32,000 nucleotides of DNA from Chlamydiales bacterium (GCA_965261025.1 OZ253438.1:240001-272000); one strand, 5' to 3'. Shown: positions 3,392-30,510, counted from the first letter of the stretch. Numbers and translations are program-made. The notes: generated by a model not told the origin, from the letters alone.

Positions 3392-4222
3392 ATGCAAATT
3401 CTTTGTTCTTCTGGATTTATAGGTTCTTATCTCTCTTCTTCTTTTTCCAAGCAGGGGCACAGCATAGTCCTTCTTCGTAGGAGTGATTTTTTGCTGGATC
3501 CAAGGCTTTTAGCGAAGAAAATAGAAAACTGTGAAGTCATTATCAATTTAGTGGGGGAAAGTCTTTTTTCCTTTTGGGGAGTTCACAAAAAAAAGAGAAT
3601 TTTAGAAAGTCGTCTTTTTTCTACGGAGAAACTAGTAAAAGCCTTCGGATTTTTAGAAAAGAAACCTTCTGTATTTCTCTCAGCATCTGCAGTAGGGTAT
3701 TACGGGAATAGAGAAGAGGTTCTGACAGAGCAGAGTAAAGAGGGGGCTACCTTTTTAGCCTTCGTATGCAAGGAGTGGGAAGCAAAAGCAAAAGAGGCTG
3801 AAAAGTTGGGGATAAGAACCGTTTTCTTACGTTTTGGAGTAGTTTTGGGAAGAGGAGGCTTTTTGCAAAAGAGTGCTTTTTTTGCAAAACTAGGCCTTTA
3901 CCCCATCTTAGGAGAAGGAGATCAGTATATGAGTTGGATAGATATAGAAGATCTTTTTCGAGCCCTTGGTTTTATAATAAAAACCCCTTCTTTACGTGGA
4001 GCTGTGAATCTTTGTTCTCCTTTTTTTCTCTCCCAAGGGGAGTGTGCTGATATTTTAAATGGGAAAAAAACTTCGTGTAGGATACCTTCTTTTTTATTTA
4101 GAGGTTTTTTAAGAGAATTTTTATTCTCCAGTCAAAAAGTGTTTCCTGAAAAGCTTTTACGGGAGGAGTTTGTATTTAAGTTTCCTCATTTTACAGAGTC
4201 TTTTACAAAATATAAGGTCTAA
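3392..4222 (+). CDS. Epimerase-family protein, YfcH/SDR39U1-like (DUF1731 C-terminus)
   Basis: 276 aa. N-terminus 'ILCSSGFIGSYL' aligns to the Rossmann GxxGxxG. 'SWIDIEDL' and the C-terminal 'EEFVFKFPHFTESF' resemble TIGR01777-type proteins. Confidence 0.7.
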   Translation: MQILCSSGFIGSYLSSSFSKQGHSIVLLRRSDFLLDPRLLAKKIENCEVIINLVGESLFSFWGVHKKKRILESRLFSTEKLVKAFGFLEKKPSVFLSASAVGYYGNREEVLTEQSKEGATFLAFVCKEWEAKAKEAEKLGIRTVFLRFGVVLGRGGFLQKSAFFAKLGLYPILGEGDQYMSWIDIEDLFRALGFIIKTPSLRGAVNLCSPFFLSQGECADILNGKKTSCRIPSFLFRGFLREFLFSSQKVFPEKLLREEFVFKFPHFTESFTKYKV

Positions 4223-7254: not shown

Positions 7255-9165
7255 ATGGAATGCTTGGGAGATTTTATTCTTTTAAAAGAGCTAGGACAAG
7301 GGCCCTTTTCCACTACTTATCTTGCAGAGCAAAGGTTTATCAAAAAGACCTTTGTTTTAAAAGTTTTGGATAAGACACTTTCTGCCGATCCTCTGTTTTT
7401 AGATCGTTTTGAAAGGCTTATCTCTTCCGTAGCTTCCTTAGAACACCCCTCAATTGTAAAAATACATAATATTTCTTCGCACGAAGGGACTTACTTTTTG
7501 GTCATGGATCCTTTTGTTGACTCTGTTGGAGAGACGATGAATTTAGATCGTTATTTGGATTTAAAGGGTAAAGTACTTACAGAAGCAGAGATAGAAAATA
7601 TCCTTTTACAGATAGCAGGAGCTTTAGATTATGCGCACGCTATTTCTTTTGATGAGGGGTATTTAGCTCATGGAGGGTTGAAACTTTCTAACTTACTGGT
7701 AGCAAAAAAAGAGAAAGAGCTGAGAATTTATCTTTCTGACTTTGGCTTTTCTAGAATCCTTTCTAAGGGACTTTGTCTAGCTAGAAAATGTGAAACTTTC
7801 TCTCTTGCTTTGCAGGAAAGAAAGGAAGGCTTTAATTCAGAAAGGCACTACCTTTTACATCGCTCTTTTTTGCGTGACTTTCCCTTTTTGGCTCCAGAGC
7901 AAAAAGATTTTGAAGAAGAAGAGATGCCAGATCCTTCTGTGGATGCCTATGCCTTTGGCGTTTTAGCTTATTTTTTACTTACAAAAACCTTTCCGGAAGG
8001 GTGTTTTGATCCAGTTCATTTAGGAAAATTTTCTTATAATCTTTCTTGGGACTTGCTTATCTTTCAGTCTTTGCAAAAAGATCCAAAGAACAGACCTACT
8101 AACTTAAGCAAAGCTATGGAAAAGATCCGAGGAGAGAAAAAGGCTTCTTATCCTTGGAGTGAAGTGGGTAAAAAAATTGAAGATGCGATGCAAATGTCTT
8201 TTACCTTCGGGGAGAAGAAAGCAGATAAAGTAGAGGAGATTACGAAAAAAACCCCTCTTACTTTTTATTCATCTTCTCAAGAGTCTAGTTTGAAACCCCT
8301 TTTAAAACCTCAAGAGATTCATAGGCCTCAGTATGAGCCAGATCCGGGAGCTATTTTTCAAAAAGAACTTGCCGTTTCTAGATATCAACCTGCCGAGGTT
8401 GAAGTAAAAGAGGTAGAACCTCTTTTAACAGAAATGGTTATTATACCCGGAGATACATACTTTCGAGGAAGTAATCACGGGGCAAGGGATGAGATGCCAA
8501 GACATGCCATTTCTCTATCGAGTTTTGCTCTTGATATACATCCTGTTACCAACGAGCAGTTTGTCCGGTTTTTAAGCGCTATGGGAGGAGAAAAAGATGG
8601 AAACAATAATGATATTATCCGATTGAGAGACTCTCGTATTAAAAGAAGTTCAGGAAAACTCACAATAGAATCAGGTTATGCCAGGCATCCTGTAGTGGGA
8701 GTTACTTGGTATGGGGCTTTTGCCTATGCAAAATGGGTAGGAAAAAGACTTCCTAAGGAAGGAGAATGGGAAGTTGCCTCTTACAGTGGAAAAAAAGAGG
8801 GTATGATTTATCCCACAGGGGAGGACATAGAGAGAACCAAGGCCAATTTTTTCAGTTCAGATACCACAGCGGTAATGAGCTATCCCTGCAATGAGTATGG
8901 TATTTATGACATGGCAGGGAATGTCTATGAGTGGTGTCAAGACTGGTATGCCTATAACTATTATGACACTTCCTTGCAAGAGCCTGAAGATCCTCAAGGA
9001 CCACCTCAGGGGGTTTATAGGGTGCTAAGAGGGGGCTGCTGGAAAAGTCTTAAGGAGGATCTACGCTGTTCCCATAGACATAGAAATAATCCTGGTACGG
9101 TAAATGGGACATATGGATTTCGCTGTGCAGCTGATGTCACTTCCGCTGGTAAAAATTTCCTCTGA
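7255..9165 (+). CDS. pkn1: Ser/Thr-kinase-like protein fused to a C-terminal FGE-sulfatase domain (chlamydial Pkn1 architecture)
   Basis: 636 aa. Gly-loop 'LGQGPFSTTY', 'FVLKVL', 'LSDFGFS', 'FLAPEQ'. C-terminus has '[17 protein letters not shown]', '[11 protein letters not shown]', 'RGGCW' and 'YGFRCA' (FGE-sulfatase). Confidence 0.8.
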   Translation: MECLGDFILLKELGQGPFSTTYLAEQRFIKKTFVLKVLDKTLSADPLFLDRFERLISSVASLEHPSIVKIHNISSHEGTYFLVMDPFVDSVGETMNLDRYLDLKGKVLTEAEIENILLQIAGALDYAHAISFDEGYLAHGGLKLSNLLVAKKEKELRIYLSDFGFSRILSKGLCLARKCETFSLALQERKEGFNSERHYLLHRSFLRDFPFLAPEQKDFEEEEMPDPSVDAYAFGVLAYFLLTKTFPEGCFDPVHLGKFSYNLSWDLLIFQSLQKDPKNRPTNLSKAMEKIRGEKKASYPWSEVGKKIEDAMQMSFTFGEKKADKVEEITKKTPLTFYSSSQESSLKPLLKPQEIHRPQYEPDPGAIFQKELAVSRYQPAEVEVKEVEPLLTEMVIIPGDTYFRGSNHGARDEMPRHAISLSSFALDIHPVTNEQFVRFLSAMGGEKDGNNNDIIRLRDSRIKRSSGKLTIESGYARHPVVGVTWYGAFAYAKWVGKRLPKEGEWEVASYSGKKEGMIYPTGEDIERTKANFFSSDTTAVMSYPCNEYGIYDMAGNVYEWCQDWYAYNYYDTSLQEPEDPQGPPQGVYRVLRGGCWKSLKEDLRCSHRHRNNPGTVNGTYGFRCAADVTSAGKNFL

Positions 9166-9298: not shown

Positions 9299-10723
9299 TT
9301 ACGACTTGTCTAGCAGATGTTTAAAATCAATGATTGCAGAAAAAAAGTCGCTTTCTACTACGGTTTCATCAACTCCATTCACATGAATCAAAACAGGTCG
9401 TATTGATATATTTTTAGGTAGGGTTAAACTACGAATTTTTTGTTTTACCTCATCAACAACACTTCTTGTAAGCTCTTGACTACTAAATTTAATTTCACAC
9501 AAATAACACGTTCCGAATTTTGTTTGAATCATGTAATCGATTTGACAACCTGATCGACCTTTAGCTTTACGTTGGAAAAATGGATTGTCATTCACAATCT
9601 CAGACGGATCAACATTGAGAATATGCTGTATTGCCTTGCGATTGCTGAGTACAAGATTTTCAAATTGCAACCCCATTGCTGATTGCCATTGAGGTAACAG
9701 CTTTAATCCCTGTCTTGCGATTTTCTTTTTATTTGGCTTGATATATTTCAAATAAAACCTTAAATAATTGTCTTTAAGTCGGTAATGACTCAACTTTGAA
9801 TCTTTCCCTGTTTTAAGATGCCATGTAAAATCTTGAGAAACAAACCCTGCAGTGACTAGATCTTCCATGTATCTAGAGGTCACCCCACTTTTTTCGACGT
9901 TTAAAGCTTTGTAGATATCTTTAAGCTCACACGGACCTTCAGCAAGTCTTTCGACAATTTTTTTGTAAATCGCACTTCTATTTGAAAACAAATCTGAAAA
10001 AATTCGCTCAAACTCACTAAAAAGAAATCCTTCTTTTCGAAAGCACAGTTTTTGAATATTATCCTCTGCGCTTTGATTGGGTATGATTTCTTCAAGATAG
10101 CGAGGAACTCCGCCAATGACTGAAAGAACCTTTAGTTTATCAAAAGCGGATACCCTTTTCTCTTCTGCTTTCCAAAATTTGTTACATTCATAAAGCGGAA
10201 GTTCTTCTAAAACAATGTCTAAAGAAATTCTTCCCAAAAAACCTGTGCTGCTAAGAATGTTTTCTTCTATCCAACTTGAAATTGATCCGCACAATATGAG
10301 AATCAGCTGAGGGTTATTCTTAAAATAGAGATCCCAAGCTGTTTTAAGCTTTCCTAAAAACGTAGGATCTTTTGAACCCATCCAACTGATTTCATCTAAA
10401 ACAAGAACGATTTTTCCTTTTTGAGCATGTTGTGCTAGATGCCAAAATAAATCTCCCCAGTCATCAGCCCTCGGAAGAGGGATTTTCATTTCACGTTGTA
10501 ATTGTCGAGCAAATTCCTCTCTTTGATCGGCAGCTGAAATGTTATTGGTGGGAGGAAACCCAGAAAATACATAGTGAGGTATTTTGCTAGCAAATTCTTG
10601 AGTTAAACGACTCTTTCCGATACGTCGTCTACCCCGAATAACAACAAGGCTCGACGCTTTTTTCTTAAAAAGCTCCTGTAACATCTGAAGCTCTCTTTTA
10701 CGTCCCACAAACGTATGCAGCAT
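9299..10723 (-). CDS. AAA+ ATPase (Arch_ATPase-type) with DUF234 / PD-(D/E)xK-like C-terminal domain
   Basis: 474 aa. Walker A 'RGRRRIGKSRL', Walker B 'IVLVLDEISW'. C-terminal 'QIDYMIQTKFGTCYLCEIKF' gives a D...E-x-K motif. Confidence 0.8.
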   Translation of the reverse strand: MLHTFVGRKRELQMLQELFKKKASSLVVIRGRRRIGKSRLTQEFASKIPHYVFSGFPPTNNISAADQREEFARQLQREMKIPLPRADDWGDLFWHLAQHAQKGKIVLVLDEISWMGSKDPTFLGKLKTAWDLYFKNNPQLILILCGSISSWIEENILSSTGFLGRISLDIVLEELPLYECNKFWKAEEKRVSAFDKLKVLSVIGGVPRYLEEIIPNQSAEDNIQKLCFRKEGFLFSEFERIFSDLFSNRSAIYKKIVERLAEGPCELKDIYKALNVEKSGVTSRYMEDLVTAGFVSQDFTWHLKTGKDSKLSHYRLKDNYLRFYLKYIKPNKKKIARQGLKLLPQWQSAMGLQFENLVLSNRKAIQHILNVDPSEIVNDNPFFQRKAKGRSGCQIDYMIQTKFGTCYLCEIKFSSQELTRSVVDEVKQKIRSLTLPKNISIRPVLIHVNGVDETVVESDFFSAIIDFKHLLDKS

Positions 10724-10853: not shown

Positions 10854-11412
10854 TAATGATATTATCCGACTGAGAGACTCTCGTATTAAAAGAAATTCAG
10901 GAAAACTCACAATAGAATCGGGTTATGCCAGGCATCCTGTAGTGGGAGTTACTTGGTATGGGGCTTTTGCCTATGCAAAATGGGTAGGAAAAAGACTTCC
11001 TAAGGAAGGAGAATGGGAAGTTGCCTCTTACAGTGGAAAAAAAGAGGGTATGATTTATCCCACAGGGGAGGACATAGAGAGAACCAAGGCCAATTTTTTC
11101 AGTTCAGATACCACAGCGGTAATGAGCTATCCCTGCAATGAGTATGGTATTTATGACATGGCAGGGAATGTCTATGAGTGGTGTCAAGACTGGTATGCCT
11201 ATAACTATTATGACACTTCCTTGCAAGAGCCTGAAGATCCTCAAGGACCACCTCAGGGGGTTTATAGGGTGCTAAGAGGGGGCTGCTGGAAAAGTCTTAA
11301 GGAGGATCTACGCTGTTCCCATAGACATAGAAATAATCCTGGTACGGTAAATGGGACATATGGATTTCGCTGCGCAGCTGATGTCACTTCCGCTGGTAAA
11401 AATTTTTCCTGA
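10854..11412 (+). pseudogene. Orphan duplicate of the 3' end of pkn1 (FGE-sulfatase domain fragment, about codons 451-636)
   Basis: About 99% identical to 8607-9165. It lacks the kinase domain and any upstream ORF continuity. The 156-aa track ORF (10942-11412) starts at an internal GTG. Confidence 0.85.
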
Positions 11413-11703: not shown

Positions 11704-12282
11704 ATGAAGGATTTTTTTTTACGATCTGAAGACCATATAGTTAGATCCAAAGATTTCTCCAAGAAATCTTTAGAGTCTCAAAATTTTGAGGAGTGCTTAT
11801 TTGAGGGGTGTAACTTCACAGAAGCTCTTTTGAAAAAGGCAAAGTTTAGTTCTTGTCTCTTTAAAAACTGTAATTTTAGTTTAGTGAAGTTAGATGAATG
11901 TCGTATCCAGGATACTCCATTTTTGGAATGCAAAATCGTAGGTGTGGAATTTTTTAAATGTGAAAAGACCTTTTTCTCAACAACTTTTCGAGGTTGTTTA
12001 GTCCAATATTGTAATTTTTCTGATCTTCGGATGAAAAATGCTTCTTTTGCTAGAAGTAAGTTGAAAGAGTGCTACTTTACCAATACATATCTAGTGGGAT
12101 CTGATTTTGAAGAGACAGATTTGATGGGAACCGTTTTTCACAATAGTGATCTTTCCCAATGTGATTTCTCTAAAGCATTGAATTACAATATTGATCCAGT
12201 AACTAATAATATTAAAAAAGCGAAATTTTCCCTTCCAGAAGCAGTAGGACTTCTACGTGGTTTTGATATTTCCCTTCTATAG
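11704..12282 (+). CDS. Pentapeptide-repeat protein
   Basis: 192 aa of tandem pentads, e.g. 'CLFEGCNFTEALLKKAKFSSCLFKNCNFSLVKLDECRIQD' and 'GSDFEETDLMGTVFHNSDLSQCDFSKA'. Confidence 0.85.
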   Translation: MKDFFLRSEDHIVRSKDFSKKSLESQNFEECLFEGCNFTEALLKKAKFSSCLFKNCNFSLVKLDECRIQDTPFLECKIVGVEFFKCEKTFFSTTFRGCLVQYCNFSDLRMKNASFARSKLKECYFTNTYLVGSDFEETDLMGTVFHNSDLSQCDFSKALNYNIDPVTNNIKKAKFSLPEAVGLLRGFDISLL

Positions 12283-12591
12283 TATCAAAAAGAGTTCTTT
12301 GACTATTTGAAAAAAGAGCCTAGGGTCCTCTTGTTTAGGTTATGCTAGATGCTTCTACATTGCTGTAAGCAAAGAATCTACGTATATTTAGAAGAGGAAG
12401 AAGGTCTCGATTTTTTACCAGCTCTTTCTAAGAAGAACTCGTATTCTTCGAGAAAGATCTTTTTTAGTTCACCAGAGTCTTTGCAAAGGATATCCCATCT
12501 GGGATTCTTCTTCTTCCCTATTATAGTGGCTTCTGTAATAACTTATTTAATGATTAAAAGAGGTTTTTGTTGGATCAAACTGGTATGTTGG

Positions 12592-13236
12592 TCAATGCAC
12601 CATTTGTCCACTAAAAATCTGTTGATTTGCAAGATCTGTTTCTATGCTGTAAATCCAGTTATTGAACAGTACTTCCTCTATAAGACAAGCATGTGTGGCA
12701 TACCTTTTTCCCAGCTTAAGTTTTTTGATCCCTTCTTGCATTTCATCTAAATGTTCTTCTTCTTCGAGAAGAATCGACTTTACATGTACTTTTGATCTAT
12801 GCTTCCGCAGCACTGCTTCGTAAATGGGATAAAATTTTTGGGCTCGAACTTCTATAGCATAAGTTACTAAAAGATAAGCAATCTTTTTCACGGAGCGTTT
12901 ATCTAGCATGCATTCTTTTATTAGGAAACGAGATATGAAAAGGTCTAATTTATTTAGGTATTGCAAAGTAGTAATTCCGCCAAGAATGGACGATGGGCAA
13001 TAATTAGGAAAAAAGGACAAAGAGACTCTTTTAATTTGCCATTTCAAATAGTGACAGTGGCGAAATTCTTCAGAGGCATGCTTAAGCATTTCTTCTTTCA
13101 CTAAAGTAGGGTGCTCACAGGCAGCTATTTTGCGAGCGCCGCAATTTTCTAAATAAGAAAGGGTATTGAGCCATTTCGCGTGAAGAATATCATTTTGGAC
13201 AATCTTAATGAGAAGAGGAATTAATTTTTTCTCCAT
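12592..13236 (-). CDS. Diiron-carboxylate (ferritin-like four-helix-bundle type) protein, fifth gene of the bio operon; function unknown
   Basis: 214 aa. Its start overlaps the bioA stop by 16 nt. Motif E30 ... E57-x-x-H60 ... E129 ... E159-x-x-H162 ('YLENCG', 'SEEFRH', 'YAIEVR', 'EEEEH'). Confidence 0.6.
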   Translation of the reverse strand: MEKKLIPLLIKIVQNDILHAKWLNTLSYLENCGARKIAACEHPTLVKEEMLKHASEEFRHCHYLKWQIKRVSLSFFPNYCPSSILGGITTLQYLNKLDLFISRFLIKECMLDKRSVKKIAYLLVTYAIEVRAQKFYPIYEAVLRKHRSKVHVKSILLEEEEHLDEMQEGIKKLKLGKRYATHACLIEEVLFNNWIYSIETDLANQQIFSGQMVH

Positions 13237-14483
13237 AAATCTCCTTCAAGGGTAAATATAATTGCATCATAGACAAGATTCAGTTCTTCTTTTGAGAAAC
13301 AGTAAGGAGGGAGAACATAGAGAACGTTTCCCAAAGGTCTTAATAAGATTTTTCTCTCGATAAAAAATTCATATAGAAAATTACCTAGAGAAGAAAAATA
13401 AGTACAATTTTCATCTTTATACTCGAGAGCTAAAATCGTTCCAAGAGATTCACACCGTTTAAGTCTTGGATGATTTTTCCATTGTTTTACAAAATTTGAG
13501 TGATACTTTTCGATCATCATTCTTTGTCTTGTACAATCTGAGGTTAGAAGAAGGTCGAGACTAGCAACAGCACTAGCACATGCTAGGGGATTAGCCGTAT
13601 AGGAATGCCCATGTAAAAGTGCTTTGTGCTTGTCTTTACAGTGGAAGAGTTTGTAAATTTCCTCTTTACAGGCGGTGGCTCCTAACGGTAAAAATCCTGC
13701 TGTGATTCCTTTAGATAAACAAATAATATCAGGATTTTCTTCTAACCTTCCGCAGGCGAAATAGGTGCCTGTTCTACCAAATCCCGTCATTACTTCATCG
13801 GCAATTGTAATAACTTCATGTTCTCGGCAAATTTTGAGAAGGTGATTCAGGGCTTTGGCTGAGTGGATCACCATTCCAGAAACTCCTTGAATTAAGGGCT
13901 CAAATAAGAAACAGGCTATTTCATTCGAGGAAAGGGCAGCTTGAAGTTCAGCAATACTTTTTTCTTCTAGACCAGAGGTGGGTGGAGTAATTGTGATTAC
14001 ATCAAAGAGATGATTCCAAAAGGGGCGATTCAAAAGGGTTTTTCCAGATACTGACATTGCTCCAAAGGTATCACCATGATAGCCCCCTTTAAAACTCACA
14101 ATTTTTGTTTTCTTTTTGCTTTTATTGTACCAGTACTGAAGTGCCATTTTTAAACCTACTTCAACGGCTGTTGAACCATTGTCTGAATAGAAAATTTTCC
14201 CCATTTTTCCTGGGAGAAGAGGAAGGATTCGAGTAGTAAGTTCTAATGCTGGTGGATGAGTAAATCCTGCAAAAATGACCTGTTCCAGCTCTAGGGCTTG
14301 TGCAGAAATTTTTTTAGCGATGTATGGGTGACAATGACCATGTAAATTGACCCACCAAGAAGAAATAGCATCTAAATAATCTAGGCCATCTTGTGAGGTT
14401 AAATAGGATCCCTCGCCTTTGATAATTTGGATAGGCTCTTTTGCTGTTTTCATTTGAGTGAAGGGATACCAGATTGCTGCCAT
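13221..14483 (-). CDS. bioA: Adenosylmethionine-8-amino-7-oxononanoate aminotransferase
   Basis: 420 aa. 'DEVMTGFGRTG' and PLP-Lys context 'CLSKGITAG'. Sits in the bio operon. Confidence 0.9.
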   Translation of the reverse strand: MAAIWYPFTQMKTAKEPIQIIKGEGSYLTSQDGLDYLDAISSWWVNLHGHCHPYIAKKISAQALELEQVIFAGFTHPPALELTTRILPLLPGKMGKIFYSDNGSTAVEVGLKMALQYWYNKSKKKTKIVSFKGGYHGDTFGAMSVSGKTLLNRPFWNHLFDVITITPPTSGLEEKSIAELQAALSSNEIACFLFEPLIQGVSGMVIHSAKALNHLLKICREHEVITIADEVMTGFGRTGTYFACGRLEENPDIICLSKGITAGFLPLGATACKEEIYKLFHCKDKHKALLHGHSYTANPLACASAVASLDLLLTSDCTRQRMMIEKYHSNFVKQWKNHPRLKRCESLGTILALEYKDENCTYFSSLGNFLYEFFIERKILLRPLGNVLYVLPPYCFSKEELNLVYDAIIFTLEGDLWRKN

Positions 14484-15073
14484 TTTTTTGCGTACCTTTG
14501 AATTGTTGATAAATTAATGCTTTTTTCTGGAAGTAACCTGCCAAGAAAGGGAACTTCGGAAAATTTTATGATTGCCTTTTCACTGTCTGGGTTGGATTTG
14601 CCGTTAAAAATGATCCCTAGAATTTTTATGGATCTTTTTTTAAGTGCCTCAATTGTGAGTAGCGTATGATTGATGCTACCTAAGTAGTGTTTTGATACAA
14701 GGATCCAGTGAGCCTTCCAGGTTTTAAAAAGATCGATGCTAAGAAGACTTTCGTTTAAAGGAACAAAAATCCCTCCAGCCATCTCAATAATCAAGGGATG
14801 ATTTGTTATAGGTGGGATGATTTTTTCAGGATGGATTATTCGGTTTTCTAAGCGGGCTGCATGATGTGGAGAAAGTGGGGCCTTAAAAGTATAAGCTGGG
14901 GGGTGAACTTTGTGATTCGAAGAAAGGAATCTTGTAATCATAGCAGAATCAGTATCGGAGGCTCCGCTTTGGACCGGCTTCCAATAATCTCCTTTAAAAA
15001 TCGTGGTAATAACTGCAGAAACAACTGTTTTACCAACTCCTGTGTTAATTCCTGCTATGATAATATCAGCCAT
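14450..15073 (-). CDS. bioD: Dethiobiotin synthetase
   Basis: 207 aa. P-loop 'GINTGVGKTVVS' and 'EMAGG'. Overlaps bioF and bioA. Confidence 0.9.
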   Translation of the reverse strand: MADIIIAGINTGVGKTVVSAVITTIFKGDYWKPVQSGASDTDSAMITRFLSSNHKVHPPAYTFKAPLSPHHAARLENRIIHPEKIIPPITNHPLIIEMAGGIFVPLNESLLSIDLFKTWKAHWILVSKHYLGSINHTLLTIEALKKRSIKILGIIFNGKSNPDSEKAIIKFSEVPFLGRLLPEKSINLSTIQRYAKKWQQSGIPSLK

Positions 15074-16145
15074 ATTGCCTTATAAGCTGGAGTAGGTTTA
15101 GGAGCTCTTTCCTTGAATTAAATGAATGGAGAGTTAGTCGGATATTTTCTTTTCCTCTTTGCACTGTTGGACTCAAAAGAGCTCGAACGTCAAATCCTTC
15201 TTTCATAATAGCTGAAACAAGCGCTAGAGCTTCTTGGTTATTTCGCACAAAAATGGGCTGAATGGCAGTAGAAGAACGGTTTGAAAGCTGAATTAGATCT
15301 TGCAAATGCACTCTTTCTGCCTCTAATTGAGGAAAGAGAGTATAACTACATTTAATAGCCGCTAAAGAGGAAAAAGGAAGGGCTGTTGTATAGATGAATG
15401 ATTTAGCAAAGTTGATAAGTGTTTCTTTTAAATGGGGATCACCCAATATAGCAGCTCCAAAGACGCCAAGCGCTTTGCCAAAGGTTACAGTTTGGGCAAA
15501 AATTTTCTTATTTAGACCTGCCTTATGAACAAGACCTCTTCCCTGATTTCCACATATCCCAATTGCATGGGCTTCATCAACGATCAAGTGAGCATGATAT
15601 TTTTGGGAGAGATGAAAAATTTCAGCTAAGGGCGCTAAAGATCCATCTGTTGAGTAAATGGATTCAATGCAGATATAAGCTTTTCTCCTTTGGGTAATTT
15701 GTGTGAGTCTATTTTCTAAATGATTTAGATCATTATGTTTAAAAGGAAATGCCTTTGCTTTAGCTAGGCGGATGCCTTCATGGGTCGAAGCATGAATATG
15801 GGCATCAAATAATAAGATATCTTCTTCTTTTGCAATGCAGCTGATTAAACCGATATTGGCCATATAACCACAATTGAAAATTAATCCAGCTTCAAATCCA
15901 TGAAATGCAGCAATCTTTGCTTCAAGTTCTTCCACATAGGTATTATTTCCTGTAAGAAGGCGAGACCCGGTTGAACCCAAATAGTTTAGGGACTCCCATT
16001 CAGAAAGCACGGCTTGTTTTAATTGCAAAGATTTTGCAAGCCCCAAATAGTCGTTGGAAGCAAAATCAATCAGATTTTCTTTAATTTGCAAAGATCGAAA
16101 ATTTCCGATTTGTTTACGTTTTAGTAGAATTTGATTCACAGGCAT
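15066..16145 (-). CDS. bioF: 8-amino-7-oxononanoate synthase
   Basis: 359 aa. 'LIVDEAHAIG' and PLP-Lys 'TFGKALG'. Sits in the bio operon. Confidence 0.9.
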   Translation of the reverse strand: MPVNQILLKRKQIGNFRSLQIKENLIDFASNDYLGLAKSLQLKQAVLSEWESLNYLGSTGSRLLTGNNTYVEELEAKIAAFHGFEAGLIFNCGYMANIGLISCIAKEEDILLFDAHIHASTHEGIRLAKAKAFPFKHNDLNHLENRLTQITQRRKAYICIESIYSTDGSLAPLAEIFHLSQKYHAHLIVDEAHAIGICGNQGRGLVHKAGLNKKIFAQTVTFGKALGVFGAAILGDPHLKETLINFAKSFIYTTALPFSSLAAIKCSYTLFPQLEAERVHLQDLIQLSNRSSTAIQPIFVRNNQEALALVSAIMKEGFDVRALLSPTVQRGKENIRLTLHSFNSRKELLNLLQLIRQYG

Positions 16146-17094
16146 AGCTCTTACGCTTTTTCAGTCCTAATAAGTTAAACATTTCTTCATCTGAGTCATT
16201 CGATGTATTTCCTACAGTGAGTAGTTTCTCACCGGCAAAAATAGAATTGGCCCCGGATAAGAAACAAAGTGTTTGCTCTTGGTATGATAACTCAATGCGT
16301 CCCGCAGAAAGACGGATCATTGATTTAGGCATAAGGATTCTAGCGATAGCAACCATCCGGATAAATTCCCAAGAGGAGAGTTTTGGTTGATTTGCTAAAG
16401 GAGTTCCTGGAATGGGGCTCAATTGATTGATAGGAACAGATTCTGGGTGAGGATTTCTATGAGATAAAGCTAAAAGAAGTTCTAGTCGATCTTCTTTTGT
16501 TTCTCCCATGCCCATAATGCCTCCACAGCAAACACTTATTCCTGATTTCTCAACAATATCAAGTGTATTAATACGATCTTGATAGGAGCGTGTGGTAATA
16601 ATTGTTTTATAAAAACGCTCTGAGGAGTCTAAGTTATGGTTATAAGCATAAAGTCCTGCTTGTTTTAATTTTTCTGCTTGAAGCTTACTTAAAAGGCCAA
16701 GTGTGCAACAAACTTCTACTCCTAAATTGGCTATCCCTTTAACCATGCGCAAAGTCTCATCAAACTGCTTACTATTTCGAACATTTCTCCAAGCGGCTCC
16801 AAGACATATTCTTGTTGCCCCTTTTATACTTGCTTTTTTGGCCGCAGCCATAACTTCTTCATATTGCATCATGGGCTGAGCTTTGACATTTGTTTGATAG
16901 TGAGAAGATTGAGCGCAGTATTTACAATCTTCTGAGCAACCTCCTGTTTTAATTGAGATCAAATGGCAAACTTGGATTTCTCCCATCTTGTGGTGCATTT
17001 TGTGAATTTTCATCGCCTCTACGATCAATTCCAAAAGAGGCTTCGAATAGAGAATTTGTAACTCCTGAAAGGTCCAGTCCGATCGAATGGTCAT
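16114..17094 (-). CDS. bioB: Biotin synthase (radical SAM)
   Basis: 326 aa. 'GGCSEDCKYCAQS' CX3CX2C motif. First gene of the operon. Confidence 0.95.
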   Translation of the reverse strand: MTIRSDWTFQELQILYSKPLLELIVEAMKIHKMHHKMGEIQVCHLISIKTGGCSEDCKYCAQSSHYQTNVKAQPMMQYEEVMAAAKKASIKGATRICLGAAWRNVRNSKQFDETLRMVKGIANLGVEVCCTLGLLSKLQAEKLKQAGLYAYNHNLDSSERFYKTIITTRSYQDRINTLDIVEKSGISVCCGGIMGMGETKEDRLELLLALSHRNPHPESVPINQLSPIPGTPLANQPKLSSWEFIRMVAIARILMPKSMIRLSAGRIELSYQEQTLCFLSGANSIFAGEKLLTVGNTSNDSDEEMFNLLGLKKRKSYACESNSTKT

Positions 17095-17158
17095 ATTTAC
17101 CTCATTATTACGGACAAGTTTAGGAAGTATCTAGTTCTGATTGCAACTGGAAGTTTGG

Positions 17159-17187
17159 TTATGTAAACCAAAAATAGGTTTACATAA
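17159..17187. promoter_or_regulatory. Perfect inverted repeat TTATGTAAACC-N7-GGTTTACATAA in the bioB / wHTH-gene divergent intergenic region (operator candidate)
   Basis: Left arm 17159-17169, right arm 17177-17187, exact reverse complements. It lies 65-93 bp upstream of the bioB start. Confidence 0.6.
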
Positions 17188-17277
17188 AACTAAATAAAGT
17201 TTGATAATAGCGGATATTGCTCAATCTGATGAAAACCTAAAAATAGTTAAATTAAACTAAAAAGAGGTTATATTTTT

Positions 17278-18072
17278 ATGTTTGAAGTGTTGTTTGGAAA
17301 TAAAAACATAGAAAAAATTCTTATTTTTCTTTTCGTGAGCGGTAGGTGTTATGGGGCTCAGTTGCAGCGAATTTTCAATACACCCCTTACGCCTCTTCAA
17401 AAAGTTCTTATCCGTCTAGAAAAAGGAGGGCTGATTTCTAGTCAATATGAAGGAAAAACGCGTATTTATCGGTTTAATCAAGGATTTCCTCTGCTGTCTG
17501 ATTTAGAACAGCTGCTTAAAAAAGCCTATACGCTGTTACCCGTTCATGAAAAGAAACTTTATTATATGGGAAATGAAAATCGTGGTTTTTATCGAGATTC
17601 TTCTACGAAAAATCTGAGTACCCTTTTTGAATTTTGGGAAAAACTCTCTTCCGTCAAAAAACTGTCTTTTTTAGCTCACTCTAAGTCCAAAGAAAGCTCT
17701 GGTTGGAATGGACATGGATCAGGGGATGTTATCGTGACAAAAACAAGCCCTAATATTCTTGTTTTTCAGGAAAAGGGTTTTTGGAAGGGAAAAAACAACC
17801 AAGAGGTGAGTTTTACAAATACCTTCCGATGGACCTTAGATCGAGTTACTGGGGTGATTTCGCTAGAACACCTGCGTCATGGTATAGAGAATCCTGTTTT
17901 TCTATTTCATTTAGCTCCTTCGGCAGCGCATTCCTTATCTTCTATTGATTCGCATCTCTGTGATGGAGACTCTTATTTTGGTCAGGCGCATTTTGACCGA
18001 TATAACTTAAAGTTAACTTGGCGTGTCATTGGACCTAAGAAAAATGAAGAGATTGAATACAGCTATCTATAG
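17278..18072 (+). CDS. Winged-HTH N-domain fused to a DUF6314-like beta-rich C-domain; putative transcription factor
   Basis: 264 aa. 'GRCYGAQLQRIFNTPLTPLQKVLIRLEKGGLISSQYEGKTRIYRFN' is wHTH-like. C-terminal 'HLCDGDSYFG...LTWRVIGPKKNEEIEYSY' resembles the DUF6314 signature. Confidence 0.55.
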   Translation: MFEVLFGNKNIEKILIFLFVSGRCYGAQLQRIFNTPLTPLQKVLIRLEKGGLISSQYEGKTRIYRFNQGFPLLSDLEQLLKKAYTLLPVHEKKLYYMGNENRGFYRDSSTKNLSTLFEFWEKLSSVKKLSFLAHSKSKESSGWNGHGSGDVIVTKTSPNILVFQEKGFWKGKNNQEVSFTNTFRWTLDRVTGVISLEHLRHGIENPVFLFHLAPSAAHSLSSIDSHLCDGDSYFGQAHFDRYNLKLTWRVIGPKKNEEIEYSYL

Positions 18073-19417: not shown

Positions 19418-19642
19418 GTTTTAGTATCCACTAAAAGAAGGTGAAGATCACACAGTCAAGTTCTATTTTTATAGAGAATTAGTCGATTTTTCTCTTCAGC
19501 GCTATCTTGCTTCAAGTAGAAGCTACTGGTTTTTTCTTAAAAATTATTTTTGAAAAATAAGTATGAAGCTTTTAGGCTGATAACCACTTCTTACCAGGAA
19601 TATCAATTACGCATAGACGAAAGTAGAAAATTGATAAAAATT

Positions 19643-21301
19643 ATGAGACTAGGTTTTTCTATTTGTTCTTATAACCGGCCCTATGAACTGAAGCGTTGTA
19701 TTGACTCCTTATTATTTACTACACAACATTTAAAAAATACGTATTATCTTTTGGTCGATAATTGCTCCCCTCAAATTTCGAAATCACAGCTTGAAAATTA
19801 TCGAAATACTGCTCTTTCTAACCTTAATATAGTAAGGTTTGCGTCTAACAAAGGTATTACAGGTGCATTTAACTTCTCTTGTTATAGCTTATCAAAAAAC
19901 AATTGTGATATTTTTTTTATTATTAACGATGACATTTTTTTTAAAAAACGTGGGTGGGTTGAAGGATATTTGTTAGCACACAAGCAATCGGGTATCCATC
20001 ATTTTAATTTCATGGACGGAAGAAATATTGTTGGAAGGCAGTCTTTTGGTTCAGTTGAAGTCACTTATCATAATTGGGTTAGAGGGTGTCTAGAAGTAAT
20101 TACCAAGGAGTGTTACAAACAAGTAGGCGGTTATCGAAAATGCTTTCATGATTTTGGTTGCATGGATACCGACCTTTCCGATCGGATTATTTTAAATGGA
20201 TTTGCAAGCTCTTATCTGCAAGAACTTTATTCTTATTGTACTACCTCCTCATATAAAGGACATTACAATATGGGTTTTTCTGCAGATATTGAACAAGCTC
20301 GGAATTATATTTTTGATCCTCATCCAAACATGGGGGTAGGGAACCCCAAGTCACAGTATTCGAAGAAAAAGGAGGGTTTTGAGATTTTGAGTTTCGAACG
20401 AGAAAAGAGAACAAATCATCTCCTGGTATTAACATATCATCACATTTTAAATGCAAAAAATTCGAAAGGTTTTCCAAAAGATTTTGGAGTAACTACTGTT
20501 GAATCTTTTAAATCTCAGATTCACACTTTAATTAAAATGGGATACCATTTCTTTTCTCCAAGTCAACTAAATACTCAAAGGCCCTTACCCAGTAAAATAT
20601 GCATTTTATCCTTTGATGATGGCTATCATTCTATTTATCAAAATGCTTATCCGATTCTGAAGAACGAAGGAATTTCAGCCATTTATTTTCTTACTACAGG
20701 TTTTTTGGATCAGCAAGAACTATTTCCTTATCACGAATTTCTTTGGTTCTTAGAAAGCTGCAAAGACAGAAGTATTAAGCTGAGCCTCCTTCCTTCTCAA
20801 TGTAATCAGCTCACAGAAAGGGAACTGCGCCTAAAGTTAAAATGGTTTTTTCGTTTTTCAGCAAATAAACAGCAGCAAAAAGAAATGATTCATTTTTTAA
20901 AAGGTACTTTCGAAAATAACTCTTATCCAGAGCGTTTTTATTTAACTTGGGGACTGGCTTCAAAAATGAGTGATGTCTTTGAATATGGGGCCCATACTGT
21001 CACCCATCCTCAACTAAGCCTTATAAATTCAACAGATATGAAGAAAGAAATCTATAAATCAAAGCAAGAGCTTCAAAAGCGATTAGGCGGGGGAAACTGG
21101 TTTGCTTATCCATATGGATACAGTAGTTCTTTTAATCAAACAAGCATCAACTTTGTAAGGGAAAGTGGTTTTTTAGGTGCTTTTACTACAGAACCTAAAA
21201 AAAATACGCTTCCTATTAAAGAGCCTTTTTTAATAGGTAGGTTCTCTCCGGAGAACCTAGCTGGAGAAGATTTTAAAAAGCGAGTTAAAGAGCTTAGATG
21301 A
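19643..21301 (+). CDS. Fusion protein: GT2 glycosyltransferase (N) + NodB-type polysaccharide deacetylase (C)
   Basis: ATG at 19643 gives 'MRLGFSICSYNRP', a typical GT2 start (track TTG at 19550 is the alternative). 'LLVDNCS' and 'IINDDIFF'. C-domain has 'LSFDDGYHS', 'GAHTVTHP' and 'FAYPYGY' NodB motifs. No TM segment seen. Confidence 0.8.
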   Translation: MRLGFSICSYNRPYELKRCIDSLLFTTQHLKNTYYLLVDNCSPQISKSQLENYRNTALSNLNIVRFASNKGITGAFNFSCYSLSKNNCDIFFIINDDIFFKKRGWVEGYLLAHKQSGIHHFNFMDGRNIVGRQSFGSVEVTYHNWVRGCLEVITKECYKQVGGYRKCFHDFGCMDTDLSDRIILNGFASSYLQELYSYCTTSSYKGHYNMGFSADIEQARNYIFDPHPNMGVGNPKSQYSKKKEGFEILSFEREKRTNHLLVLTYHHILNAKNSKGFPKDFGVTTVESFKSQIHTLIKMGYHFFSPSQLNTQRPLPSKICILSFDDGYHSIYQNAYPILKNEGISAIYFLTTGFLDQQELFPYHEFLWFLESCKDRSIKLSLLPSQCNQLTERELRLKLKWFFRFSANKQQQKEMIHFLKGTFENNSYPERFYLTWGLASKMSDVFEYGAHTVTHPQLSLINSTDMKKEIYKSKQELQKRLGGGNWFAYPYGYSSSFNQTSINFVRESGFLGAFTTEPKKNTLPIKEPFLIGRFSPENLAGEDFKKRVKELR

Positions 21302-22713
21302 ATAAAGAACAAGAATTTGAATCAGTATTAGAATCCTTAAAGATATTGGATATTCAAGAAATAACGCATACGCTCATAAAGAAAAAATTCTCTTCTTTTT
21401 ATCAGTCTTATCAAATCACTTCAGACGATTTAGTTGTTTTTCTTTTGACTTATTTTAAACCAGACATATCTGTATATGATATCCTTAAGCAGACTAGCCT
21501 GAATAAAAATCAGATACTACAAGCTTTCAAAAAAATTAACTCTTGCACCCTTTTCCAAAGGCTTTATCTATCTCATAGAACACATAGAAATTTTTACCGA
21601 AAAATAAACACCTTATTGAAGTCACCAAAAAAACTGTATGAGATGATTCAGGATCAATCTTCAACTCTTCTGGAGCTAGAAGTACATCCTGCTCTATTTT
21701 GTAATTTGCGATGTGTTTTTTGCTACAGTAAAGGGCAGGGAGTTTATAGATATATTCATGAAAAAGGACGTAACCCCCTTACAATCAATCAATGGAAACA
21801 AATTATTGAAGAGGCAAAAGACCTAGGTGTTTCTAAGATTGCCATAAGTGGTGGCTATGAGCCCTTTAAAGCCGGTGAAACATTGGGAATTATTGATCAT
21901 GCCCATAATTTAGAAATACCTATCGAAATCTATACGAATGGAACAATTCCCCTTACTTCAGAAAAACCTGTATGGGATACGCTACAAAAACTGACGGCTA
22001 TTCATCTGAGTTTTCGAGGAACAAATCCAGAAACTCATGCAAAAGTTACAAGATCGACTCCTCAAAGCTATCAAATTTTATTAGAAAATTTCCAAAAACT
22101 GCTAGCCTCGAAAAAGAAGGGGGAACTTGAAGCCAAAATTACGGTTTCTTTCTTTGTGCACAAAGATAATATATCTTCGATTTCAGAGATTATTCAGCTA
22201 GCAGAAGGGGTTGATTCTATCAATTTTTCTAGCGATAATTACGAAGGGTTGAAGCATAGTCTTTCTAAACAACAATTTACGGATCTTCAAAAAGAACTCC
22301 ATTCAGTTCAGCCTTATATTTTAGGATATAAAAAACCTGTTGTAACGTTGAATGATGATTTATGGATGCTTTATCAGAAAGATAAAAACAAGCCCACTAA
22401 TCCGCTAATTCAGAATTATTTATGTTATAATTCTTTCATTAGACCTACGATTAATCCTTTTGGTGATGTTTATAGATGTTGTTTGGTTGCTCAACCAAAT
22501 TTTGATTTAAAACATACAAAACTAGGTACTGTCGATCAAAATCATTCTTTGAAACAAATTCTACAAAGAGCTATTTCCCATCCGCTATACACAAAAAATT
22601 GTATAAAGTGCAATCCTTCAGAAAAAACGGGCTTGATTGTGATGAATAAATTAAAGAATGATATAAAAGCAGGAGTTTTGCCTGAGCATCAACCCTATAG
22701 AGGTTTATTATGA
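21298..22713 (+). CDS. Radical SAM enzyme with Cys-rich (SPASM/twitch-like) C-terminus (rSAM-1)
   Basis: 471 aa. 'EVHPALFCNLRCVFC' (C135/C139/C142; nt 21700-21723) and 'IAISGGYEPF'. C-terminal Cys: 'CYNSF...YRCCLVAQ...CIKCNPSEKTG'. Confidence 0.85.
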   Translation: MNKEQEFESVLESLKILDIQEITHTLIKKKFSSFYQSYQITSDDLVVFLLTYFKPDISVYDILKQTSLNKNQILQAFKKINSCTLFQRLYLSHRTHRNFYRKINTLLKSPKKLYEMIQDQSSTLLELEVHPALFCNLRCVFCYSKGQGVYRYIHEKGRNPLTINQWKQIIEEAKDLGVSKIAISGGYEPFKAGETLGIIDHAHNLEIPIEIYTNGTIPLTSEKPVWDTLQKLTAIHLSFRGTNPETHAKVTRSTPQSYQILLENFQKLLASKKKGELEAKITVSFFVHKDNISSISEIIQLAEGVDSINFSSDNYEGLKHSLSKQQFTDLQKELHSVQPYILGYKKPVVTLNDDLWMLYQKDKNKPTNPLIQNYLCYNSFIRPTINPFGDVYRCCLVAQPNFDLKHTKLGTVDQNHSLKQILQRAISHPLYTKNCIKCNPSEKTGLIVMNKLKNDIKAGVLPEHQPYRGLL

Positions 22714-24002
22714 GAAAAAAGAAAGACCGAATAGCAGGTAAAGTAATTGACTATTCTAACATGCCTGAGAGGATGGGGATAGCTCCTCAGTTGCAAAAGA
22801 GTATCCTAGAGGAAGTAGATTTAGAGTCTGTCCTAGACAACATTGAAAAAGTTTGGCAGGACGGTTTTGATTACAAGGATATGCTAAAGCTATTGCCTTT
22901 TTCAAAAGAAGTTAAGCAAAAAATTGTAGATATGCATTGGCTTCCAGCCAAGGGAGAAAAGAATTTTAACTACATCAAAGAGAATACTCATTCTGGTTTT
23001 CACAAGTTAGTCTTTAAAAGGATTTTAATCCTTCTTCATGCAAAAGCTTTAGGAAATACCCTTCCTAGAAATGAAGATATGTGTGTTGAAATTACCTCTG
23101 CTTGCAATAAAAAGTGTCTTCATTGCTATATGCATGAAAAGAATCTTGGAGAGTTCATGAACACAGAGCTTCTTCATAGTTTAGTTGAATATGCCAATCA
23201 AAACATGCTTTCTTTACAAATGATTGGCGGAGAGCCTATGCTCGATAAAAGACTTGTTCCTCTCATTCGTAAATATCCAACCTTAATTTTTTATGTTGTA
23301 TCAAATGGGGTGCGCTTTTCTGATCGCTTAATCCATTCAATTCGGAATGAGATACATAATTTTCAACCTATCTTAAGTTTAGAAGGGTTTCAATCTTATA
23401 ACGATTCAATTCGGGGGATAGGCAGTTTTAGTAGAACTGTTGATATCATGAAAAAACTCAAAAAGTTAAAGATTCCTTATCAAACTGATACCATTATCAC
23501 TACCAAAAATATTAATTCTGTTCTCTCAGATGATTATATGAATTTCCTAATGGATCATGGTCCTTGGGGAGTTGGACTCTATAAGTATAGACCAGTTGAA
23601 GGGCTGGATCATGGATTATCGCTTTCTAAGAAAGACTTGGATTTATTCGAAGAAAAAATTAATGAATTTCTTCACAAGTATCCTTTTCGGTTTTTTCATG
23701 AAGAACCCATTCACATTGCAAACCGCAGAAAAACAAGGGTATGTAAGGGTCTTTTAACAATCACTGTACATGGCCATGTAAAAATGTGTCCCTCTATTCA
23801 TAAACCCACGCTTACTCTTCAGTGCTTTAATAGAGATGAAGTGGCTAACGTTTTAGACACTTGGTACAACATAGTAGGAGTAAACAGTCCTGGATGTCCT
23901 CTTTTCTTTAATACAGATTCTATTAAAAACTTCTACCAAGCACTTCCGCAATCTCGGAAAACTTGTGTAAACAAGAAAGAATCTTTAACTGTTCTTTCTT
24001 AA
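22710..24002 (+). CDS. Radical SAM enzyme with Cys-containing C-terminal domain (rSAM-2)
   Basis: 430 aa. 'VEITSACNKKCLHCY' (C132/C136/C139) and 'MIGGEPMLD'. C-terminal 'VCKG...VKMCPS...PGCPLF'. Confidence 0.85.
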   Translation: MRKKKDRIAGKVIDYSNMPERMGIAPQLQKSILEEVDLESVLDNIEKVWQDGFDYKDMLKLLPFSKEVKQKIVDMHWLPAKGEKNFNYIKENTHSGFHKLVFKRILILLHAKALGNTLPRNEDMCVEITSACNKKCLHCYMHEKNLGEFMNTELLHSLVEYANQNMLSLQMIGGEPMLDKRLVPLIRKYPTLIFYVVSNGVRFSDRLIHSIRNEIHNFQPILSLEGFQSYNDSIRGIGSFSRTVDIMKKLKKLKIPYQTDTIITTKNINSVLSDDYMNFLMDHGPWGVGLYKYRPVEGLDHGLSLSKKDLDLFEEKINEFLHKYPFRFFHEEPIHIANRRKTRVCKGLLTITVHGHVKMCPSIHKPTLTLQCFNRDEVANVLDTWYNIVGVNSPGCPLFFNTDSIKNFYQALPQSRKTCVNKKESLTVLS

Positions 24003-25387
24003 AAAAAAGCACTGGAAGGTTTTTTTTCATTTACCCTTATCTTTTTTGTAATTAAATCGTTAATTGGATGGATGAGTTCTCCCTGGCTGCACTCATATTT
24101 ATTACAAAAAGAGCAAACTCTATTCGTTGCATAATAGCTATTTAATGAGAATTTCACTCTTTCCTTCTCTTCGTTAAAACGGGTAAAATCTGCTATAATC
24201 ATTCTTTGTTTTGGATTAAAGTTCCCCACCTCAGCACATTCTAAGCAAGGGTAGATAAAACCTGATGCTGAAATAATTGTACTGACTAAAGGAACCCCGC
24301 ACGTAGAGGGGTATTCTCTTAGACCAAATCCAATATTTCCCATGGTGTATCTTTCAAAAATTTCCGTATAATTTGTAAAGTTTATAATAAAATCTCCAAG
24401 ATCGGGGCAGCTTGCAATGAGTCTCGAAAATTCTGATTTAAGATGATCAAACTGTTCAGGGGTACAGGCATTGGAGTATGTATTTGCTTTTACGACCTCT
24501 TCTCTTTCCGGCATGAGAGGACGAAGAGGGCGAAATTGAAAGTTTAAAGCCTGAATATTTCTAGCAGATTTAAAAAGATGATATACCTTTACAAGAAAGT
24601 CAGGTATTTCCTCTATATTGTCCCTCATATATAAAAATCCAATGCCAAGATTTTGAATTTTCCGGCCATGAAATTCTCGATCAATATATTCTCTTGCTAG
24701 TAAAAGGACATCTTCTAGGGTGTGTTTAGGCATACGGTTTCCTAGTTTCTTCCTTCTATAAGTCTCTTCTGTTCCGGCATCTACATTAATCCTAAGCCAT
24801 TCGAGTAAGGCAACCCCCGGTCCAATATCTTTTGATCCATTTGAGTTCATTCCCAGTGCTATTCTTGGGAATTGTTCATCTAGAGCAAGAATAAAGTCTG
24901 TCATTGAAGCTTCCTGATCAGAATCTTTATAAAGAGAAGGCTCGCAAAAACCTCCTGAGATCGCAATCGCTTTAGGGTGAAAATATTTTGTATTTTGAAG
25001 AGAGCTAAATGGTAGATATTTATATCGAGAATCATCGCGATTACCTAGCCAGGAGCAGTAGTTACATCGATAATTACAAAAACTGACGGGATGAAATTCA
25101 ACTTTGGGTCGCTCAACCATTTTTAAGAGATCTTCTTTTAAGGTATCGATTCGCAAAAAAGTTTGTAACTCATTAATCGTAGCTTCAGTGGTCAGTTTTT
25201 CTTCGTAATGGTCTTTTAGGATTTCATGAACCATTTTGGCTTTCGTTCCAAATAGATTGTATAAGTTTCCTGTTGAATAGGCATTTTCAATGTGTTCTTT
25301 ATACTGAAAAACGCGGTGAACAGATCTTACTTGTTCCATTCTATCAGAATTATGCTGTAATATTCTCAACTGACTCATAAGCTTCAC
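23999..25387 (-). CDS. Radical SAM enzyme with Cys-rich (SPASM-like) C-terminus (rSAM-3)
   Basis: 462 aa. 'EFHPVSFCNYRCNYC' (C104/C108/C111) and 'IAISGGFCEPS'. C-terminal 'CGVP...YPCLECAEVG...CSFCNKYECSQG'. GTG start at 25387; alternative ATG at 25378. Confidence 0.85.
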   Translation of the reverse strand: MKLMSQLRILQHNSDRMEQVRSVHRVFQYKEHIENAYSTGNLYNLFGTKAKMVHEILKDHYEEKLTTEATINELQTFLRIDTLKEDLLKMVERPKVEFHPVSFCNYRCNYCSWLGNRDDSRYKYLPFSSLQNTKYFHPKAIAISGGFCEPSLYKDSDQEASMTDFILALDEQFPRIALGMNSNGSKDIGPGVALLEWLRINVDAGTEETYRRKKLGNRMPKHTLEDVLLLAREYIDREFHGRKIQNLGIGFLYMRDNIEEIPDFLVKVYHLFKSARNIQALNFQFRPLRPLMPEREEVVKANTYSNACTPEQFDHLKSEFSRLIASCPDLGDFIINFTNYTEIFERYTMGNIGFGLREYPSTCGVPLVSTIISASGFIYPCLECAEVGNFNPKQRMIIADFTRFNEEKERVKFSLNSYYATNRVCSFCNKYECSQGELIHPINDLITKKIRVNEKKPSSAFF

Positions 25388-29770: not shown

Positions 29771-30184
29771 ATGAACCAGGAAGACATTCGCTGGAAACAG
29801 CGCCTAAGTAATTTAAAACTTGCACTGGGTCAACTGGGTGATGCTATAACACTTGCAAAACAAAGAGATTTATCCTTGTTAGAACAACAAGGACTCATTC
29901 AGGCTTTCGAATTTACGCATGAATTATCTTGGAATGTGATGAAAGATTATTTTTATTTTCAAGGGAACTCGGCTGTTACTGGATCTCGTGATGCTTCTCG
30001 AGAAGCTTTCAAAAATGGGTTAATTCAAGACGGAGAAGTCTGGATGGAGATGATTCAGAGCCGAAATCGAACATCCCATACTTACAATCAGGAAATTGCA
30101 CAACAAATTTCTCAGAGAGTTATTGAATTTTATTACCCCGCATTTGAGTTATTCGTTAAAAAAATGGAAGAGATAAAAGAGTGA
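29771..30184 (+). CDS. HEPN-domain protein, HI0074 family (nucleotidyltransferase substrate-binding protein; HepT-like toxin)
   Basis: 137 aa. 'WKQRLSNL...AL' N-terminus and the Rx4-6H motif 'SRNRTSHTY'. Confidence 0.85.
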   Translation: MNQEDIRWKQRLSNLKLALGQLGDAITLAKQRDLSLLEQQGLIQAFEFTHELSWNVMKDYFYFQGNSAVTGSRDASREAFKNGLIQDGEVWMEMIQSRNRTSHTYNQEIAQQISQRVIEFYYPAFELFVKKMEEIKE

Positions 30185-30510
30185 ATCAACCTGAAGCCAA
30201 GTTCGGTCTTAAAGCTACTGAAATAAGCGCAGTTCATGGCGTTTTCAAACTGTTTCCTGATTTGAAAAAGGTTAGTATTTATGGTTCTCGAGCAAAAGGA
30301 AATTATAGACCTGGATCTGATATAGATTTAACTCTACATGGTAAAAACCTGGCCTATCAGGATCTCGTAGCTATTGAAAATGCCCTAGACGAGCTATCTT
30401 TACCCTATACAGTAGATCTTTCAATTTATCATCTTCTTGATAATCCAGATTTAATTGATCATATCAAGCGTGTTGGTATTGAATTTTATCAACAAGCCAA
30501 AGATTGTTAA
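30181..30510 (+). CDS. Minimal nucleotidyltransferase (MNT; MntA-like antitoxin)
   Basis: 109 aa. 'IYGSRAKGNYRPGSDIDL' (GS...DxD). GTG start overlaps the HEPN stop (GTGA). Confidence 0.85.
   Translation: MNQPEAKFGLKATEISAVHGVFKLFPDLKKVSIYGSRAKGNYRPGSDIDLTLHGKNLAYQDLVAIENALDELSLPYTVDLSIYHLLDNPDLIDHIKRVGIEFYQQAKDC

Follow-up and report, generated by a model that had tools for sequence, protein, structure and literature searches.

The open reading frame at positions 12592–13236 (minus strand) of the 32,000-nt stretch of Chlamydiales DNA analysed here, hereafter the window, very probably encodes BioE, a ferritin-like diiron oxygenase that would make the pimeloyl moiety for BioF. This analysis established the orthology of the window protein, its conserved ligands and its linkage to the operon, and lends support to a ferritin-like fold class; its chemistry is taken, by analogy, from the literature on its orthologues. 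The original prediction had proposed that a non-haem diiron protein may act as a functional analogue of BioI and provide the pimeloyl moiety; this is essentially correct and corresponds to the published function of BioE (PMC12704756, PMC12915131), of which the window carries an orthologue. Since the family has already been named and characterised, Chlamydia included, the reading was right but already known. What may be new beside the known enzyme is a candidate regulator, encoded divergently from bioB, together with its candidate operator.

Two papers, both dated December 2025, describe the genetics and biochemistry of BioE (PMC12704756, PMC12915131). The enzymes of Elizabethkingia meningoseptica and Chryseobacterium indologenes are ferritin-like non-haem diiron oxygenases with about 2 Fe per monomer that require O2 and a reductant and cut C14–C18, but not C12, acyl-CoA/ACP at C7–C8 to give pimeloyl-CoA/ACP and a Cn-7 acid; BioE complements E. 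coli ΔbioC, ΔbioH and ΔbioC/H strains and is essential to biotin prototrophy of its host (PMC12704756). The two irons activate O2, and the ten-electron oxidation, which takes several steps, culminates in C7–C8 cleavage (PMC12704756, PMC12915131). The chlamydial “CpBioE” is monomeric and acyl-ACP-specific, and its gene lies within a conserved chlamydial bio cluster that is devoid of the repressor BioL (PMC12915131).

Operon position and conservation of the locus

The first cistron of the operon is bioB (biotin synthase; 16114–17094, minus strand), which matches TIGR00433 with 384.6 bits at a cut-off of 225. It is followed on the same strand by bioF (8-amino-7-oxononanoate synthase; 15066–16145), bioD (dethiobiotin synthase; 14450–15073; TIGR00347, 113.1 bits versus a cut-off of 83.3) and bioA (adenosylmethionine-8-amino-7-oxononanoate transaminase; 13221–14483; TIGR00508, 512.7 bits versus 405, plus Pfam Aminotran_3). 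These four neighbours are true bio genes. The NCBIfam equivalog cut-offs are exceeded by bioA, bioD and bioB; for bioF, which also matches Pfam Aminotran_1_2, TIGR00858 is the best NCBIfam match, yet its 319 bits stay below the equivalog cut-off of 426. Neighbouring cistrons overlap throughout, by 32 nt (B/F), 8 nt (F/D), 34 nt (D/A) and 16 nt (A/E), and the claim that a 214-aa ORF follows bioB-F-D-A as fifth cistron, overlapping the bioA stop by 16 nt, was thus borne out from the sequence. The ATG start of bioE, whose product is predicted to be a ferritin-like diiron oxygenase, lies at position 13236 within the 3' end of bioA, and a Shine-Dalgarno motif, GAAGGAG (13241–13247, minus strand), can be read from the sequence 4 nt before this ATG, likewise inside bioA. 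Translational coupling of bioE to bioA via the overlap and the internal Shine-Dalgarno motif is plausible; among related loci, bioA and bioE either overlap slightly or are separated by up to a few tens of nucleotides. A promoter and terminator scan of positions 12000–17600 returned sites that were no commoner than in shuffled sequence, and we claim neither a promoter nor a terminator for this region. A plus-strand ORF (12349–12750) that overlaps the 3' end of bioE is without supporting evidence and was taken as spurious.

Co-occurrence with bioBFDA in Chlamydiae had been named as a check on the original reading, and it was found. A locus scan for bioE homologues yielded 80 loci, all from Chlamydiota bar a few MAGs labelled Verrucomicrobia, with the homologue directly after bioA in 77 and the complete B-F-D-A-E order visible in 63. 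BioE is accordingly the near-universal fifth bio-operon gene in environmental chlamydiae too (Simkaniaceae, Parachlamydiaceae, Rhabdochlamydiaceae and Waddliaceae), beyond the Chlamydiaceae. The three exceptions are a bioB-bioE pair (L025), a solitary copy (L027) and a copy at a contig edge (L053). In L025 (6800–8603), bioE comes straight after bioB, and none of bioF, bioD and bioA lies within 8 kb; the lone copy in L027 (7962–8615) is located amid genes for a TauD-like dioxygenase, a methyltransferase, a DsbB-like protein and a lipid-A acyltransferase.

Family membership, iron ligands and fold

No family model of Pfam (2025 copy) or NCBIfam 20.0 matches the window protein above its cut-off, which explains why members of the family are labelled hypothetical. 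At E ≤ 0.001, 1665 proteins were retrieved from a collection clustered at 90%, the best of them 56–76% identical and nearly all from Chlamydiota; their labels are mostly hypothetical, now and then “bacterioferritin” or “COQ7”. An exhaustive search at the same threshold gave 502 clusters (50% identity). The nearest relative, from Candidatus Neptunochlamydia, is 72% identical to the window protein and aligns with no indels.

The window protein was tied to characterised BioE through primer-derived fragments and through the orthologue from C. pneumoniae. Mutagenesis primers in the supplement of PMC12915131 were back-translated into wild-type protein fragments of CpBioE and EmBioE, which agree with the window protein in 68 of 111 and 31 of 51 positions, respectively, each at constant offsets. 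As a query, the concatenated CpBioE fragments (111 aa) returned only proteins of at most 195 aa, candidate length probably having been limited, and none from Chlamydiaceae; a hybrid full-length query was used next and retrieved P0315 of Chlamydia pneumoniae. All five internal CpBioE fragments agree with P0315 at 100%. Against the window protein, P0315 shows 52% identity across an ungapped 181 aa (E 6e-65), and its gene follows bioB-F-D-A in its own genome with the same overlap as in the window. For EmBioE, the Sphingobacterium proteins P0124 and P0126 have the ligands at the EmBioE positions and match 45 and 41 of the 51 EmBioE fragment positions; P0124, taken as a proxy for EmBioE, is 48% identical to the window protein. 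The termini of CpBioE encoded by the cloning primers (MLTSTIT... and ...IEKTCRV) matched none of the proteins compared. Judged by sequence, ligand geometry and gene context, the ORF is a BioE orthologue.

Supplementary Table S2 of PMC12915131 contains two differing “CpbioE” primer sets. The fragments encoded by the AT-rich set agree at 100% with the C. pneumoniae protein, although the paper calls CpBioE the enzyme of C. psittaci; the GC-rich set encodes another orthologue with the same numbering. Among the homologues, P0155 (1911 aa) combines a BioE-like N-terminus (residues 15–182, 46% identical) with a helix-hairpin-helix and a C25 peptidase domain. We do not take this for a true BioE-peptidase architecture; it is probably a gene-call fusion in metagenomic data.

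The predicted iron ligands of the window protein are E30, E57, H60, E129, E159 and H162, and the only two ExxH motifs in its 214 residues begin at 57 and 159. All six residues of the motif E(30)-x26-E(57)xxH(60)...E(129)-x29-E(159)xxH(162) are found where they had been claimed, and alignments of 33 and of 61 homologues show them, together with many of the surrounding residues, to be invariant. By this pattern of invariance across homologues, the predicted ligand motif is not a product of chance. The corresponding ligands are E26/E53/H56/E125/E155/H158 in EmBioE (PMC12704756) and E41/E68/H71/E140/E170/H173 in CpBioE (PMC12915131), such that the successive offsets of 27, 3, 69, 30 and 3 residues are the same in all three proteins. 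Alanine at each ligand abolishes function in EmBioE (PMC12704756) and in CpBioE (PMC12915131).

Biotin synthesis has been lost repeatedly in chlamydial lineages (PMC12915131), and the ORF could in principle be a leftover, decaying or without function, of intracellular genome reduction. We consider this scarcely credible, as the reading frame is intact and preceded by a good Shine-Dalgarno motif, all catalytic residues and the four partner genes are intact as well, and the identity of 72% to the nearest relatives is free of indels. A functional BioE is the reading we retain.

Mutagenesis has identified 11 acyl-pocket residues that are required in CpBioE (PMC12915131). Nine of the 11 CpBioE residues (W33, L37, L40, I48, L105, V135, I139, Y147 and Y150) are identical in the window protein at a constant offset of 11; the two changes both preserve hydrophobicity (CpBioE L146 to F135 and L205 to W194 in the window protein). 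The carrier-binding patch is partly conserved: R35 and K36 are present, and the window protein differs from the characterised enzymes in having L91 where these carry K or R (K102 in CpBioE, R87 in EmBioE).

An AlphaFold2 model of the window protein, built from 61 sequences, is confident (pLDDT 91.7, pTM 0.88) and all-helical and places E30, E57/H60, E129 and E159/H162 on four long helices. The best PDB matches of the model in Foldseek were aldehyde-deformylating-oxygenase-like proteins and MiaE, with a probability of at most 0.99 and a TM score of about 0.54; all E-values were weak (>0.1), so that the fold evidence supports the class only. The ADO-like matches agree with the authors' naming of cADO as the nearest solved relative of BioE (PMC12704756). 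Among solved folds, the model comes closest to the cADO/ADO-like proteins (PDB 5ux1, 5ux2 and 8fhc), diiron-carboxylate four-helix bundles that hold a channel for a fatty chain; they share 13–16% identity with the window protein, at TM scores of about 0.54 or lower and Foldseek E > 0.1, and cADO chemistry differs in that a fatty aldehyde is converted to an alkane and formate. The COQ7/MiaE hydroxylases have EXXH diiron helices in common with the window protein, and MiaE (2itb, 6zma) is among the fold matches; they differ in their substrates, quinone and tRNA, and in their gene contexts, with COQ7 scores below the curated cut-offs.

These likenesses bear on the possibility that an unrelated ferritin-like diiron protein of the COQ7, MiaE or aldehyde-deformylating-oxygenase type happens to lie beside the bio operon. 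It could draw on the weak COQ7 matches (Pfam PF03232, 18.2 bits, E 0.002; NCBIfam NF033656, 13.3 bits, E 0.048) and on the presence of MiaE and ADO-like proteins among the top Foldseek matches. However, the COQ7 scores fall below the cut-offs of 23.5 and 180 bits, the Pfam match covers a single helix pair (residues 124–174), the window protein has no significant match among PDB sequences, and its homologues stand right behind bioA in 77 of the 80 loci of the phylum-wide scan; a chance neighbour is highly improbable compared with a member of the BioE family.

Proposed function and the source of the pimeloyl moiety

In the mechanism we propose, bioE would be translated as the last cistron of the bioB-F-D-A-E operon, and its product would most likely bind two irons through E30, E57, H60, E129, E159 and H162. 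With O2 and an electron donor, it would cut the C7–C8 bond of C14–C18 acyl thioesters supplied by type II fatty-acid synthesis. By analogy to the chlamydial enzyme, acyl-ACP would be the most likely substrate, a carrier preference that we infer for a protein whose patch differs at L91. The products would be pimeloyl-ACP and a Cn-7 fatty acid, with pimeloyl-ACP passing to BioF of the same operon, which condenses the pimeloyl thioester with alanine. This route would replace those via BioC/BioH, BioI/BioW and BioZ.

Chlamydiae lack BioC and BioH, and the pimeloyl source in Chlamydia was explicitly described as unknown in 2012 (PMC3459881). A domain search of all ORFs of at least 100 aa in the 32-kb window detected no BioC-, BioH-, BioI-, BioW- or BioZ-type domain, in agreement with the initial statement that no known pimeloyl source is encoded there. 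BioE would identify the pimeloyl source for the genome from which the window derives, and the question open in 2012 was answered in December 2025; annotation libraries (Pfam 2025 copy, NCBIfam 20.0) are still without a BioE model.

A BioE-family diiron enzyme might instead serve another biotin-linked oxidative step, for example by supporting BioB or by modifying another intermediate. Function is transferred here from orthologues that are just 48–52% identical, and the carrier-binding surface differs in part, both of which leave some room for such a role. We nevertheless regard it as improbable: the six ligands are kept along with 9 of the 11 pocket residues needed for pimeloyl supply, the operon position is that of C. 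pneumoniae, and BioF requires a pimeloyl donor, no other being visible in the window. Pimeloyl supply is thus the role that we assign, with the qualification given at the outset, to the window protein.

The window protein resembles the published enzymes (EmBioE, CiBioE and CpBioE) in ligand spacing, size (about 210–225 aa), linkage to bioF/D/B/A and pocket residues. It differs in its source, a chlamydia outside the Chlamydiaceae, the one family of the phylum that the papers list (PMC12915131). BioI of Bacillus subtilis (CYP107H1) carries out the same net reaction, converting long acyl-ACP to pimeloyl-ACP by oxidative C7–C8 cleavage, and likewise complements E. coli ΔbioC/H (PMC12704756). As a haem-thiolate P450, it is unrelated to the window protein in fold, cofactor and sequence and is a functional analogue only; a P450 domain was matched neither in the bioE ORF nor in any other ORF of the window.

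A candidate regulator and other features of the window

In the BioE-BioL module of Weeksellaceae, a MocR/GntR-type BioL adjoins; in the window, the neighbour is instead a gene for a winged-helix + DUF6314 protein of 264 aa (17278–18072, plus strand), which is divergent from bioB and represents a candidate bio regulator. A GntR/MocR domain of the BioL type was found in no ORF of the 32-kb window, but this does not count against BioE because BioL has been reported absent from Chlamydia (PMC12915131). PMC12704756 and PMC12915131 are at odds on whether bioL adjoins the C. psittaci cluster.

The C-terminal part of the candidate regulator matches DUF6314 (PF19834, E 4e-9), and the top four PDB matches of the family profile for residues 11–70 are PadR-/ArsR-type regulators, at marginal E-values of 0.02–0.18; the N-terminal part thus resembles a winged helix-turn-helix. 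A single-sequence model of low confidence (pLDDT 40) suggests a helix-helix-helix-strand-strand order followed by an all-beta domain. A literature search found no paper that mentions DUF6314. In 52 of the 80 bioE-anchored loci, bioB has a homologue of the regulator gene as its divergent neighbour. In an independent, regulator-anchored scan, 59 metagenomic loci had enough upstream sequence, and bioB was the divergent gene in 35 of these; among regulator loci lacking bioB, all 10 examined had the biotin transporter gene bioY in the divergent position, and tblastn detected BioY in 14 of 80 regulator-anchored loci.

The bioB/regulator intergenic region of the window contains a perfect inverted repeat, TTATGTAAACC-N7-GGTTTACATAA (17159–17187), read from the sequence as a candidate operator. 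Only around one in four bioB-upstream regions retains the exact heptamer TGTAAAC/GTTTACA, and a degenerate palindrome was found only after the best inverted repeat of each region had been listed. This palindrome, AA[AC]C-N9-G[GT]TT (consensus approximately TATAAACTAnTTTTTAGTTTA; conserved form across loci TATAAACTA-N5-TAGTTTATA), turns up, often twice, in 49 of the 53 corresponding intergenic regions, compared with a mean of 1.8 and a maximum of 5 regions in dinucleotide shuffles. Its density is 7.2 per kb in the intergenic regions versus 0.074 per kb elsewhere in the loci, a difference of about 100-fold.

The position of the putative regulator gene combined with the palindrome is, at the level of comparative genomics, a classical signature of a pathway-specific transcription factor. 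We lean, by a modest degree, towards the view that the winged-helix + DUF6314 protein controls the bio operon and bioY in environmental Chlamydiota via this palindrome; its C-terminal domain, we infer, probably senses biotin or a pathway intermediate. If true, the protein would represent a biotin-regulon regulator of a new class, filling, in a phylum reported to be without one, the role played elsewhere by BioL, BioR, BioQ or BirA. It might also keep BioE in check, an enzyme that does harm in Elizabethkingia when its expression is unregulated.

In the C. pneumoniae bio locus (L081), neither the regulator gene nor the AA[AC]C-N9-G[GT]TT motif was found. Upstream of bioB, this locus has a perfect inverted repeat of its own, AATAGGAACCA-N5-TGGTTCCTATT (approximately 4008–4036), with an AAC-N(9–11)-GTT architecture like that of the motif in environmental chlamydiae and a different sequence. 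It could act either as a terminator for Vut_1, the gene upstream, or as a further operator.

Outside the bio locus, the window carries a direct duplication of about 555 bp (8613–9165 and 10860–11412; approximately 99% identical) that copies the 3' end of a Ser/Thr-kinase + FGE-sulfatase gene (7255–9165), the second copy reading as a 156-aa ORF (10942–11412). Between the copies, on the opposite strand, lies a 474-aa ATPase_2/AAA gene (9299–10723, minus strand), and the arrangement could be explained by an insertion that duplicated its target, a scar of recombination or an artefact of assembly. Positions 19550–27094 encode a GT2 + polysaccharide-deacetylase fusion and, by domain matches, three radical-SAM proteins (21298–22713, 22710–24002 and 23999–25387) and an ABC exporter (25388–27094). 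This may be a peptide- or glycan-modification cluster, which is unusual in a small chlamydial genome. Finally, at 29771–30510 (plus strand), a gene for a nucleotidyltransferase substrate-binding (HEPN-like) protein adjoins one for a Pol-beta-type nucleotidyltransferase, the pair likely constituting a HEPN/MNT toxin-antitoxin system.
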